Shown piece after piece: positions 61,151-62,901 of a stretch of DNA of 64,000 bases. The stretch lies in NCBI RefSeq assembly GCF_022846255.1, contig NZ_AP025682.1. One strand, written 5' to 3'. Below the pieces are notes generated by a model. That model was not told where the DNA came from. It saw only the letters and a program-made list of their open reading frames with translations, and did not search any database. The DNA comes from Escherichia coli. Its GTDB lineage: Bacteria; Pseudomonadota; Gammaproteobacteria; Enterobacterales; Enterobacteriaceae. The translations under genes were made by a program, and so were the position numbers. Each line of letters begins with the position of its first letter. The first letter of the stretch is position 1.

Positions 61151-61220
61151 GTCTGTTCCAGTGTTGCCATACTTATCTTAGTGAATGCAATACTTCCAAT
61201 CTATATCTTCCGTCAGAATG

Positions 61221-61238
61221 TGTAAACGGGGTTTTACA
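61221..61238. promoter_or_regulatory. TyrR box in the aroG promoter
   Basis: tgtaaa-cggggt-tttaca is a perfect TGTAAA-N6-TTTACA box about 70 nt upstream of aroG. Confidence 0.8.
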
Positions 61239-61465
61239 CTATGAACGGATTAATCCTGGAATTAGCAAGAAAAACGCCAGATTGTCGCGAAAAACGAGAT
61301 CTCTCCTACAATTTCTAACTGTAACTCCTTTGTTTGTTAATTATTTCAAGATTCTCTGCTGCGTTTCATAAGCTGGCTGAAATCTTAAACCAATGCCTGA
61401 TATTCACCTGCAAATGCACTGTTGGAAGAGGTTATCCGACATAACGACCATAACAGGAGCATCCT

Positions 61466-61846
61466 ATGAAAATGACAAAACTGGCCACGCTATTTCTGAC
61501 TGCCACTCTAAGCCTTGCCAGCGGTGCCGCACTGGCTGCCGATAGCGGAGCGCAAAGCAATAACGGCCAGGCAAACGCCGCAGCTGATGCGGGCCAGGTA
61601 GCCCCTGATGCCCGTGAAAATGTCGCGCCAAATAACGTCGACAATAACGGAGTAAATACCGGTTCTGGAGGCACAATGCTGCATCCGGATGGTTCTTCAA
61701 TGAACAATGATGGCATGACCAAAGATGAAGAGCACAAGAACACCATGTGTAAAGATGGTCGCTGTCCGGATATCAATAAAAAGGTACAAACTGGTGATGG
61801 CATCAATAATGATGTCGATACCAAAACCGACGGTACCACGCAGTAA
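61466..61846 (+). CDS. ybgS: secreted low-complexity (N/D/G-rich) protein YbgS
   Basis: 126-aa ORF with signal peptide and Asn/Asp/Gly-rich mature region. Confidence 0.88.
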
Positions 61847-61867
61847 CCCTGCAAAATAGCCAATAAT

Positions 61868-61891
61868 GGGAGAGCGGAGTCTCTCCCTTTT
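61868..61891 (+). terminator. intrinsic terminator after ybgS
   Basis: gggagagcggagtctctccc followed by TTTT. Confidence 0.7.
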
Positions 61892-61959
61892 AATTTTTCC
61901 CTTCTACAAGCAGTATGATGTCATAAAGTTAAGTGAGAATAATTAAGGGATGACTCGTC

Positions 61960-62901
61960 ATGGCGCACTCACACTCACACGCTTCCTCACACCTGCCAGA
62001 AGATAATAATGCTCGTCGCTTGTTGTATGCTTTCGGCGTGACTGCCGGGTTTATGCTGGTAGAAGTCATTGGTGGTTTTCTTTCCGGTTCTCTGGCATTG
62101 CTGGCCGATGCGGGTCATATGTTGACCGATACTGCCGCCCTGCTTTTCGCCCTACTCGCCGTGCAATTTTCACGTCGACCTCCCACCATTCGCCACACTT
62201 TCGGTTGGCTAAGATTGACCACGCTCGCAGCATTTGTGAATGCTATCGCCCTGGTGGTGATTACCATTTTGATTGTCTGGGAGGCGATAGAACGCTTCCG
62301 CACACCGCGTCCGGTCGAGGGCGGCATGATGATGGCAATTGCCGTGGCTGGGCTGTTGGCAAATATACTTTCTTTCTGGTTACTTCATCACGGTAGCGAA
62401 GAGAAAAACCTCAACGTGCGAGCAGCGGCACTGCATGTGCTCGGGGACCTGCTGGGTTCGGTTGGGGCTATTATTGCCGCGTTGATTATTATCTGGACCG
62501 GCTGGACACCTGCTGACCCCATTCTCTCAATACTGGTGTCGCTTCTGGTTCTGCGTAGCGCGTGGCGACTGTTGAAAGATAGCGTGAATGAATTACTTGA
62601 AGGTGCACCGGTATCGCTGGATATCGCCGAACTGAAGCGTCGTATGTGCCGGGAAATCCCGGAAGTCCGCAATGTGCACCATGTACATGTATGGATGGTA
62701 GGCGAGAAGCCGGTGATGACGCTGCATGTGCAGGTGATCCCGCCACACGATCACGATGCCTTGTTAGATCAGATCCAACACTACCTGATGGATCACTATC
62801 AGATTGAGCACGCCACTATTCAGATGGAATATCAACCTTGTCATGGGCCAGACTGCCACCTGAATGAAGGGGTGTCTGGCCATTCACATCATCACCATTA
62901 A
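61960..62901 (+). CDS. zitB: zinc efflux transporter ZitB (cation diffusion facilitator)
   Basis: 313-aa ORF, His-rich N- and C-termini, six TM segments. Confidence 0.95.

Follow-up and report, generated by a model that had tools for sequence, protein, structure and literature searches.

The ybgS gene of Escherichia coli encodes an exported, RpoS-dependent protein that is predicted to be disordered and may be hydrophilin-like

Introduction

Hydrophilins are recognised by numerical cut-offs, a glycine content above 6% and an index above 1. What defines the class is the combination of high glycine content with high hydrophilicity (PMC5437024). The Met-rich MXKDX repeat peptides (MrpX/MsrX), which are small secreted proteins, scavenge hypochlorite in the periplasm by oxidation of Met and are recycled by MsrPQ (PMC8315932). 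YbgS is a 'y-ome' protein of E. coli and counts, among small periplasmic proteins, as one of the most strongly RpoS-dependent and most abundant. Two independent top-down mass spectrometry (MS) studies, of alleles near-identical to the one described here rather than of this very protein, found that a 24-residue signal peptide is removed from YbgS and allowed an intramolecular disulfide, Cys95-Cys100, to be inferred in cells (PMC8629258; PMC5594050).

Here we describe ybgS in a stretch of E. coli DNA of 64,000 nucleotides (the window). The analysis adds the anatomy of the gene, consisting of signal peptide, N-terminal block, linker, disulfide core and tail, with its own promoter and terminator, and it corrects two misleading leads, one linking the gene to zitB and zinc and the other contained in the name 'homeobox'.

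Results

Identity of the open reading frame and export of its product

An ATG-to-TAA open reading frame (ORF) encoding 126 amino acids occupies exactly positions 61466..61846 on the plus strand, and it near-certainly represents ybgS, an already known gene of E. coli. The product matches Pfam family PF13985 over its full length (E=5.6e-62, 207.9 bits, against a gathering threshold of 27), residues 3-126 aligning with profile positions 1-124 of 124, which places it among the YbgS-like proteins. The RefSeq E. coli annotation of the locus is also ybgS, in the same genomic position, and of 5426 complete E. coli genomes 5425 carry the gene. The gene name given in an earlier note on this DNA, made from the sequence alone, is therefore correct. 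The window allele has Ser31 and Pro74, where most E. coli have Thr31 and Ser74, and its mature sequence and the O104:H4 sequence studied by MS differ at two residues. Searches of solved structures in the PDB found no relative of YbgS, and defence-system models gave no match to it. A 143-aa antisense ORF at 61432..61863 on the minus strand is an artefact, being open in just 12 of 73 orthologous loci.

The coding features are as follows.

61466..61846, plus strand: ybgS coding sequence, 126 codons and TAA (PF13985, RefSeq, dN/dS)
61466..61537, plus strand: signal peptide, residues 1-24, cleaved before Ala25 (top-down MS, PMC8629258, PMC5594050)
61559..61657, plus strand: conserved N-terminal block, residues 32-64 (invariant residues in 72 orthologues)
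61658..61714, plus strand: variable-length linker, residues 65-83, an indel hot spot (alignment insertions)
61715..61786, plus strand: conserved core, residues 84-107, a period-5 array followed by RCPDINKKV (invariance, MS-inferred disulfide)
61748-61750 and 61763-61765, plus strand: codons of Cys95 and Cys100, forming a C-x4-C loop with the MS-inferred disulfide
61820..61843, plus strand: C-terminal tail TKTDGTTQ, residues 119-126 (conserved in orthologues)

The N-terminus of YbgS consists of MKMTK, a hydrophobic core and the sequence ALA/AD, without an L-x-x-C lipobox. It is a typical signal sequence, and with its A-x-A site, the absence of a lipobox and the cleavage seen after residue 24 by top-down MS, YbgS has the properties of a Sec-exported substrate of signal peptidase I. 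The earlier claim that the protein is secreted by way of a signal peptide is thus borne out. The protein is also abundant, reaching the periplasm in quantity in stationary phase, and it appears among the prominent small protein ions from E. coli colonies (PMC8629258), so that the outcome which the earlier note held would count against its reading, an ORF neither expressed nor translated, does not apply. Periplasm-derived vesicles include YbgS in their cargo. The mature protein has exactly two cysteines, C95 and C100, as had been noticed before; they had been placed near the C-terminus, but are really 27-32 residues away from it, in the C-terminal third.

Export also bears on a legacy annotation that would make YbgS a 'homeobox' or DNA-binding regulator, a reading whose probability we put at practically nil. 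UniRef entries still carry the name 'Homeobox protein', and one proteomics paper accepts it at face value (PMC12282026). YbgS is nevertheless exported with cleavage of its signal peptide, is acidic, aromatic-free and disordered in prediction, and matches no Pfam homeodomain or HTH model at an E of 1 or below. Export and the absence of a DNA-binding domain together refute the annotation.

Composition, periodicity and predicted disorder

Mature YbgS has 102 residues, of which Asn makes up 14.7%, Asp 12.7%, Gly 12.7%, Ala 9.8% and Thr 8.8%; Asn, Asp and Gly alone account for 40%. It contains no Phe, Trp or Tyr, a single Leu and two Ile, with a pI of 4.36, a GRAVY of -1.16 and a net charge of about -8. 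Compared with 61 long ORFs of the window, YbgS has the highest fraction of Asn, Asp and Gly (z=4.1) and the lowest entropy (3.81 versus 4.05+/-0.09 bits), which puts the bias well outside what chance would give. It is kept in 73 orthologues, which have 29-41% Asn, Asp and Gly, nearly no aromatic residues and always two Cys. By glycine content and GRAVY the mature chain falls within the hydrophilin definition, whereas the precursor (GRAVY -0.72) does not.

These values refine the earlier description of a chain dominated by N, D, G, A and Q. The richness in Asn, Asp and Gly, and in Ala, is real, but Gln contributes just 4.9% and the fifth commonest residue is Thr. To call the protein extremely low in complexity was an overstatement, as 17 of the 20 residue types are used and SEG-like low windows are limited to around residues 28-49 of the mature part. 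Short repeats were likewise overstated. The strings quoted as examples are present, at residues 32-44 and 56-69, but shared 3-mers number 3 against 2.4 in shuffles (P=0.43) and the same k-mer test found no shared 4-mers within the protein, so that internal amino-acid repeats are rejected as not above shuffles. The sole non-random periodicity in YbgS is one that had gone unremarked, a period-5 array at residues 84-98 (P about 2e-4 in shuffles, in a post hoc test).

This array invites comparison with the MXKDX peptides, of which YbgS might be a degenerate counterpart, although such a relationship appears very improbable. The mode of action would then be that of a sacrificial oxidant sink, which we consider to be just as improbable. 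Apart from the array itself, the comparison draws on the conservation of M84 and M94, on matches of 7 of 16 YbgS members to TIGR02953 at E<1, and on a divergent homologue (P0141) whose sequence MSKDE-MHKRA-MCKDG matches that model at E=2.8e-6 with 27.2 bits. All of these scores are, however, below the curated cut-off of 41 bits, that of the window protein being 12.8 bits, and shuffled controls that retain the N-terminus still reach 12-18 bits. In profile-profile alignment of the YbgS family with the MXKDX family by hhalign the signal peptides alone align. Met constitutes 3.9% of mature YbgS, whereas it is every fifth residue in genuine MXKDX proteins, and ybgS does not adjoin msrPQ. Membership of the MXKDX/MrpX family is rejected, since the hhalign match is restricted to signal peptides, and the pentapeptide resemblance holds at the level of the motif alone.

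The suspicion that YbgS is intrinsically disordered, for which disorder prediction had been suggested as a check, was upheld by two kinds of prediction. AlphaFold2 models built from 16- and 49-sequence alignments had a mean pLDDT of 49.4 and 51.6 and a pTM of 0.16 and 0.13, respectively, with no residue at a pLDDT of 70 or above in either model, and YbgS falls on the disordered side of the charge-hydropathy boundary. Both point to a protein that is probably disordered throughout most of its length.

Transcription unit, expression and the question of zinc

The regulatory features around the gene are as follows.

61247..61261, strand not assigned: palindromic element GGATTAATCCTGGAA (RGA-N4-TCCTGGAA), with TCCTGGAA at 61254-61261, between the divergent aroG and ybgS promoters
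61306..61312, plus strand: C-TACAAT, a -10 element predicted to be of the sigma-S type, with a T-rich run after it (conserved CTA[CA]..T)
61415..61437, plus strand: conserved element TGCACTGTTGGAAGAGGTTATCC of the 5'UTR, some 49 nt upstream of the ATG
61455..61459, plus strand: Shine-Dalgarno sequence AGGAG, 6 nt before the ATG (ACAGGAG in 72/74 loci)
61868..61897, plus strand: Rho-independent terminator, hairpin GGGAGAGCGGAGTCTCTCCC (-10.7 kcal/mol) and TTTTAATTTT (consensus scan)

The -10 motif CTA[CA]..T is found at fixed spacing in 68 of 74 loci, and the predicted transcription start at about 61319 would give a 5'UTR of about 147 nt. Centred about -62 to -67 from this start, the palindrome GGATTAATCCTGGAA is shared by 68/74 loci, and in every one of them it follows the aroG TyrR box by 33 bp and precedes the -10 element by 52 bp. 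As an RcsB box, TN(G/A)GAN4TC(T/C)NA, it was rejected, the strict box being present in none of the 74 loci; the core RGA-N4-TCC alone of that box is conserved at the ybgS upstream regions (68/74). Within the 5'UTR element, the exact sequence CACTGTTGGA is shared by 55 of the 74 loci. No Rfam family matches the 5'UTR or intergenic region, and covariation was looked for in the one small hairpin predicted, in the 5'UTR, and none was found; a structured RNA in this region was rejected on these grounds. Beyond the gene, a hairpin and T-run are situated about 20 nt past the ybgS stop codon in all 73 of the 73 orthologous loci examined, with a median of -14 kcal/mol, and gSELEX in vitro detected a separate peak of RNAP binding in the ybgS-zitB spacer (PMC5493296). 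With its own predicted sigma-S-type promoter and its own terminator, ybgS is near-certainly monocistronic.

Expression of ybgS depends strongly on RpoS, by 82-fold in EDL933, and in Salmonella 4003 ybgS reads in the wild type compare with 6 in the delta-rpoS strain. The gene is up-regulated under several stresses, and an inhibitor of LolCDE raises its expression 15-32-fold together with osmY, ivy, mliC, spy and other sigma-S, Rcs and Cpx genes. We found a single knock-out result, in which plasmid-carrying Salmonella gained slightly in competition; our literature search found no loss-of-function stress phenotype.

The earlier note suggested possible metal binding and pointed to the neighbouring zinc exporter gene zitB. 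The position is as described: zitB follows at 61960, downstream of ybgS and in the same orientation, and the order gpmA (plus), aroG (minus), ybgS (plus), zitB (plus), pnuC (minus) is found in the window and in 79 of 80 species loci, ybgS taking the orthologous position between aroG and zitB/pnuC in Enterobacterales. Because the whole gpmA-aroG-ybgS-zitB-pnuC block is syntenic, this adjacency is uninformative by itself, and two divergent lineages retain aroG-ybgS without zitB downstream. A periplasmic binder or buffer of metal (zinc) that works with the CDF exporter ZitB is in our judgement an improbable description of YbgS. It would agree with the placement of zitB directly 3' of ybgS, which extends to Rahnella, and with the acidity of the chain. 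A small metal site, H90-x4-C95-x4-C100-x-D102, could in principle be formed if the cysteines were reduced, and some YbgS homologues give weak, sub-threshold matches to CopL/ZraP models. Matches of the CopL/ZraP type arise with shuffled sequences too, however, the cysteines in cells are inferred by MS to be oxidised, and the mature protein has only two His, one of them conserved. The terminator in 73/73 loci and the separate RNAP peak in the spacer speak against co-transcription with zitB, and the predicted sigma-S-type promoter that ybgS has to itself counts against the metal model as well. Nor was a zinc-responsive element seen, the best match to a Zur box having 10-11 mismatches of 23, no better than, or worse than, shuffles, and our literature search found no report of zinc induction or of any other link between ybgS and zinc. 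These results leave metal binding by YbgS unsupported rather than excluded.

Conservation and motif blocks

YbgS is under strong purifying selection and is conserved throughout Enterobacterales. Within Escherichia the dN/dS of ybgS is 0.02-0.07, about 0.03, and many positions are invariant across >20 genera. Across 72 orthologues no change is seen at G34, N37, A40, A42, G43, Q44, A49, N52 or P55 of the N-terminal block, nor at K120, D122, G123 or T124 of the tail, all of these residues being outside the search patterns by which homologues were collected. The invariance of H90, K91, N92, C95, K96, D97, G98, C100 and P101 in the core is partly an effect of ascertainment by those patterns, but C95 and C100 are also conserved at 90% or more in a broad alignment built independently of them. 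Between these blocks the linker varies, with up to 18 alignment columns inserted after residue 66 and up to 35 after residue 77, and orthologues range in length from 114 to 164 aa.

This pattern has a rather unlikely alternative explanation, in which disordered YbgS would carry short linear motifs rather than act as a bulk protectant. The CKDG[RK]CPD loop and the invariant blocks would dock on a single periplasmic enzyme, sensor domain or exogenous hydrolase, and that partner would be inhibited or otherwise modulated during sigma-S or envelope stress, both of which we rate no higher. The low omega, the many invariant residues inside a supposedly low-complexity part, and a linker whose length varies between fixed motif blocks are all in keeping with it, as is the co-induction, when the envelope is damaged, of ivy and mliC, which encode inhibitors of lysozyme. 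Ivy inhibits lysozyme via a protruding six-residue disulfide loop, CKPHDC, which provides an analogy for the YbgS loop. On the other side, YbgS bears no structural or sequence relation to Ivy or MliC, Pfam returning PF13985 only, and owes some of the invariance of its core to the search patterns. Its very high abundance suits a stoichiometric or bulk role at least equally. That YbgS should be a disulfide-stapled short-linear-motif ligand that modulates a specific envelope enzyme or sensor in stationary phase or upon envelope damage seems to us distinctly unlikely; if true, it would add a class of its own to periplasmic regulators or inhibitors, one that is disordered and is neither bulk protectant nor metal buffer.

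Discussion

The function that we tentatively favour for YbgS is that of an abundant periplasmic general-stress protein of the RpoS response, hydrophilin-like or acting as a disordered chaperone, which is also induced by envelope damage. Sec exports the 126-aa precursor and signal peptidase I cuts it after Ala24, which releases a 102-aa acidic, aromatic-free chain, rich in Asn, Asp, Gly and Thr, that is predicted to be disordered and would be so save for the six-residue Cys95-Cys100 loop. On the proposal, highly hydrated and non-aggregating YbgS would build up in the periplasm of stationary-phase cells, or of cells under water or envelope stress, and the accumulated protein would shield periplasmic and envelope components. 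Three conserved motif blocks, NNGxANAxAxAGQxAPDA..N.AP, the disulfide-stapled HKNxMCKDG[RK]CPD and the C-terminal TKTDGTxQ, may direct it to one or more specific partners in the envelope. Against the proposal, position-specific conservation as strong as that seen here (omega about 0.03) is unusual for a purely bulk protectant and points to a specific partner instead, and the precursor with its signal peptide is not hydrophilic enough for a hydrophilin.

Comparison with described proteins sets limits to each of the resemblances discussed above. With ZraP, ZinT and the ZitB context YbgS shares periplasmic location and the position beside zitB, but in contrast to zinc-handling proteins it lacks both a His-rich motif and a Zur/ZntR-type operator, is transcribed as a unit of its own and has its cysteines oxidised. 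MXKDX (TIGR02953) proteins are, like YbgS, small and secreted, but carry 8-10 tandem units, whereas YbgS has two exact M-x-K-D-x units in register, with a K-N unit between them, and 2-3 units in all when a degenerate one is counted. Ivy offers an analogy only: both proteins are periplasmic, are co-induced by envelope damage and have a C-x4-C six-residue loop starting with CK, but Ivy is a folded domain, while YbgS is predicted to be disordered and is without sequence relation to it.

Asr (NCBIfam NF033636) resembles YbgS in being a stress-induced small periplasmic protein with a signal peptide and an Ala-rich low-complexity chain. The similarity between Asr and the YbgS family is weak and N-terminal (best member E=7.7e-5; 11-23 bits against a cut-off of 50) and does not extend beyond the signal peptide and an adjoining Ala-rich stretch; Asr is basic and repetitive in Lys, His and Ala, whereas YbgS is acidic and rich in Asn, Asp and Gly. 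The hydrophilins or LEA-like proteins YciG and YjbJ are, as YbgS is, small, Gly-rich, very hydrophilic, predicted to be disordered and strongly RpoS-dependent, and all three are seen together in top-down MS of colonies. YbgS differs from YciG and YjbJ in its periplasmic location, its disulfide loop, its conserved blocks and its lack of KGG repeats, has no sequence relation to them, and comes within the hydrophilin definition only as the mature chain. Compared with K-12 YbgS (UniProt P0AAV6) and the PF13985 family, finally, the window protein is a member with no difference of substance; ybgS and its protein are already known and ordinary, and represent no new kind of system.

The ybgS locus and its distribution

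The gene order in the window is gpmA(+) aroG(-) ybgS(+) zitB(+) pnuC(-) nadA(-), and the ybgS product is a full-length match to the Pfam family PF13985, 'YbgS-like' (E=5.6e-62, 207.9 bits against a cut-off of 27). The features of the locus are as follows.

61198-61226 (-), aroG promoter, -35 TTTACA and -10 TAGATT
61221-61238, aroG TyrR box TGTAAA-N6-TTTACA (TGTAAACGGGGTTTTACA), overlapping this -35; invariant in 74 of 74 loci
61247-61261, palindromic element GGATTAATCCTGGAA between the divergent aroG and ybgS promoters
61306-61312, predicted -10 element C-TACAAT, then a T-rich run; 68 of 74 loci
61415-61437, conserved 5'UTR element TGCACTGTTGGAAGAGGTTATCC, ~49 nt 5' of the ybgS ATG
6 nt 5' of the ybgS start (+), Shine-Dalgarno sequence AGGAG
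61466..61846 (+), ybgS coding sequence, 126 codons
61868-61897, terminator 3' of ybgS, a GC-rich hairpin with a T-run

An 809-bp query (window 61151-61959), comprising the aroG-zitB intergenic stretch and ybgS, was present in 5425 of 5426 complete E. coli genomes, where it is annotated as ybgS. Identity reaches 99.8% with strain PAR (from cockatoo faeces), whose ybgS gene is the same as that of the window, and is ~98% with most E. coli strains; only 11 of the 5425 are at least 99% identical. This ~98% identity, and a ybgS dS of 0.20 relative to the E. coli representative in GTDB, suggest that the window derives from an uncommon lineage of the species.

The family is narrow: at 50% identity, 1.84 billion representatives yielded only 64 clusters of it. 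It was found in 163 of ~100,000 species genomes, nearly all from Enterobacteriaceae genera, the exceptions being one Chryseobacterium-labelled record and one unclassified 'Proteobacteria' MAG. Rahnella, Nissabacter, Pantoea and Sodalis carry divergent members.

Expression, export and constraint

The gene, family, export, disulfide and regulation of YbgS are already described in the literature. Top-down MALDI-TOF-TOF has identified the mature protein at m/z 10469, lacking the 24-residue signal peptide, with an intramolecular disulfide inferred between mature C71 and C76 (precursor C95 and C100); the study counts YbgS among high-copy host proteins along with HdeA, HdeB and YahO (PMC8629258). A second, independent study by high-resolution top-down analysis agreed on the processing and reported a putative disulfide at 71-76 and a deamidation of +1 Da (PMC5594050), and YbgS has been found in vesicle cargo along with other periplasmic proteins. 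YbgS is thus a real, expressed protein, exported by Sec, cleaved, and abundant in stationary-phase colonies; the signal peptide proposed in the earlier note is borne out, and the possibility it raised of an unexpressed or untranslated ORF is set aside by detection of the mature protein.

The gene is under strong purifying selection, with dN/dS of 0.02-0.07 within Escherichia; between genera dN is 0.08-0.22 and dS is saturated. An antisense ORF of 143 aa (61432-61863, -) that spans all of ybgS is interrupted in all but 12 of 73 orthologous loci and was rejected as an artefact, a by-product of sense-strand codon composition.

Asn-Gly deamidates more readily than any other dipeptide, and Asn33-Gly34 (61562-61567) is nearly invariant in YbgS (N33 in 68 and G34 in all 72 of 72 orthologues); there are also five Asp-Gly dipeptides. 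Since the periplasm is not known to have isoaspartate repair, YbgS may age chemically there. Deamidated (+1 Da) YbgS has been seen by mass spectrometry in aged colonies.

Regulation

Published data show both RpoS dependence and induction by envelope damage. RpoS dependence is 82-fold in EDL933, and in Salmonella ybgS reads fall from 4003 to 6 in a delta-rpoS strain. A LolCDE inhibitor induces ybgS 15-32-fold alongside sigma-S, Rcs and Cpx genes, and ybgS forms a hub in the set of genes that multiple stresses up-regulate. In gSELEX data the RNAP holoenzyme gives binding peaks on both sides of ybgS, in the spacer towards aroG and, separately, in that towards zitB.

Across 74 loci the 315-bp divergent region between aroG and ybgS is conserved, with a rigid layout; part of this conservation is explained by the aroG TyrR box, itself known biology. 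The palindromic element keeps TCCTGGAA in 68 of the 74, at a fixed spacing 33 bp from the TyrR box and with the ybgS -10 a further 52 bp on. Its core matches RcsB half-sites (RGA-N4-TCY), and a strict RcsB box was found in none of the 74 loci. The C-TACAAT element has the form of a sigma-S extended -10, and would place the start of ybgS transcription near 61319, giving a 5'UTR of ~147 nt. Within this, exact CACTGTTGGA is retained in 55 of 74 loci; the 5'UTR element has no match in Rfam and a small predicted hairpin without covariation. With one GGA motif in this element and another, ~30 nt away, in the Shine-Dalgarno sequence, it may be a site of post-transcriptional control.

Composition, architecture and disorder of the protein

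The description of YbgS given in the earlier note proved largely right, with amendments to composition and repeats. The mature protein (102 aa) is 14.7% N, 12.7% D, 12.7% G, 9.8% A and 8.8% T, lacks Phe, Trp and Tyr, contains a single Leu and two Ile, and has a pI of 4.36 and a GRAVY of -1.16. It ranks first in N+D+G fraction among 61 long ORFs of the window (z=4.1), a bias far beyond chance, and lowest in entropy. The claimed dominance of N, D, G, A and Q holds except for Gln, which is unremarkable at 4.9%; Thr is the fifth commonest residue. The bias is kept across 73 orthologues (N+D+G 29-41%, almost no aromatics, median GRAVY -1.17), each with two cysteines. 'Extremely low-complexity' is too strong a term, since 17 residue types are used and a SEG-like threshold is undercut only at ~residues 28-49. 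Nor are the quoted strings repeats: shared 3-mers (3) and 4-mers (0) did not exceed those in composition-preserving shuffles. The one periodicity that stands out from chance has a period of 5, in an array at residues 84-98 that includes two exact M-x-K-D units (post hoc P ~2e-4 against shuffles).

Aligning 72 orthologues, which span more than 20 genera, divides the protein into five parts.

Residues 1-24, signal peptide
Residues 32-64, conserved N block; G34, N37, A40, A42, G43, Q44, A49, N52 and P55 invariant
Residues 65-83, linker and indel hot spot; orthologue total lengths 114-164 aa
Residues 84-107, core M.KDE.HKN.MCKDG[RK]CPD.NKKV, bearing the disulfide loop
C-terminus, conserved tail TKTDGTxQ

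The invariant positions of the N block mean that the 'low-complexity' stretch is position-specifically constrained. For the core, ascertainment accounts for part of the invariance, as the orthologues were collected with scan patterns taken from residues 84-107; C95, K96, G98 and C100 are conserved at 90% or more also in a broad alignment built independently of those patterns. In some genera the linker is lengthened past residues 66 and 77 by Thr/Gly/Ser/Asn tandem runs such as TGTSATGTTGTTGTSATGTTGT, so that the protein can reach 164 aa (loci L063, from Pseudenterobacter timonensis, L053, L032, L037 and L064), and the flanking motif blocks stay fixed.

Within E. coli the dominant form is 126 aa (1694 member sequences). 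Rare in-frame indel alleles (61559-61600, residues 32-45; proteins P0003, P0005, P0006, P0012 and P0023) duplicate GQANAAADA, or SGAALAAD at the end of the signal peptide, or delete NNVD or DGSSMNN, and probably arose by slippage between short direct DNA repeats.

Prediction supports well the disorder suggested in the earlier note. AlphaFold2 gave mean pLDDT values of 49.4 (16 sequences) and 51.6 (49 sequences), with pTM of 0.16 and 0.13 and no residue reaching 70, and mature YbgS falls on the disordered side of the charge-hydropathy boundary. A PDB search returned no relative. The legacy name 'homeobox protein', kept in UniRef entries and taken by one 2025 proteomics paper to mean DNA-binding (PMC12282026), was rejected for this exported, predicted disordered protein with no DNA-binding domain.

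Proposed function

In its mature form, though not as the precursor with its signal peptide (GRAVY -0.72), YbgS has the high glycine content and high hydrophilicity that characterise hydrophilins. Together with the predicted disorder and extreme hydrophilicity of the chain, this makes a periplasmic protectant the most plausible role: YbgS would be the periplasmic counterpart of the cytoplasmic sigma-S hydrophilins, accumulating on growth arrest or envelope stress and acting as a hydrated, non-aggregating shield or chaperone-like protectant. Three position-specifically conserved blocks, joined by a length-variable linker, argue that it may additionally recognise something specific. A protectant with docking motifs is accordingly our tentative preference. 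That YbgS is purely a specific ligand or inhibitor seems unlikely, and we find it harder still to credit a disordered periplasmic regulator acting through a disulfide-stapled linear motif. The probability left over by four readings of YbgS goes to something outside those considered.

Relationship to zitB and metals

The earlier note placed YbgS beside zitB as possibly metal-binding. The two genes are neighbours in 79 of 80 species loci, and also in Rahnella, but this alone says little because the entire five-gene block is syntenic, and two divergent lineages have aroG-ybgS with no zitB downstream. At locus L085 (4001-4288, P0183) pnuC lies directly 3' of ybgS and YbgS lacks both cysteines; at L087 (3001-3330, P0141) a two-component system (response regulator and hybrid histidine kinase) lies 3' and the cysteines are retained. 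The genes have separate promoters and an intervening terminator, found in all 73 orthologous loci ~20 nt past the stop codon, with a conserved stem (GGAGAGC/GCTCTCC) and variable loops. No Zur-box-like site was found at ybgS, YbgS has only two His, one of them conserved, its cysteines are inferred by mass spectrometry to be oxidised in cells, and a literature search found no connection with zinc. Weak matches of some homologues to CopL, ZraP, CpxP, Spy and Asr models were also obtained with shuffled sequences, and are carried by signal peptide and composition. Metal binding by YbgS, and a functional link to zitB, are thus unsupported, and we consider a metal-binding partner of zitB very improbable. 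ZitB (61960-62901) is itself His-rich at both termini, and any His-rich metal-ligand motifs of the neighbourhood sit in this transporter, outside YbgS.

Comparison with MXKDX proteins

The YbgS core resembles the M-x-K-D-x pentapeptide of TIGR02953 (MXKDX repeat) proteins. Methionine-rich periplasmic MXKDX peptides scavenge hypochlorite through sacrificial oxidation (PMC8315932), but there is scant likelihood that YbgS is such an oxidant sink. The divergent homologue P0141 (MSKDE-MHKRA-MCKDG) reached 27 bits (E=2.8e-6) against TIGR02953, but every score in the YbgS family fell below the 41-bit cut-off and shuffles with the N-terminus kept still reached 12-18 bits. Genuine MXKDX proteins are built of 8-10 units, every fifth residue being Met, whereas YbgS contains 3.9% Met, and hhalign of the two families aligned the signal peptides alone. 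Membership was rejected on these grounds, leaving a motif-level resemblance between the YbgS core and MXKDX.
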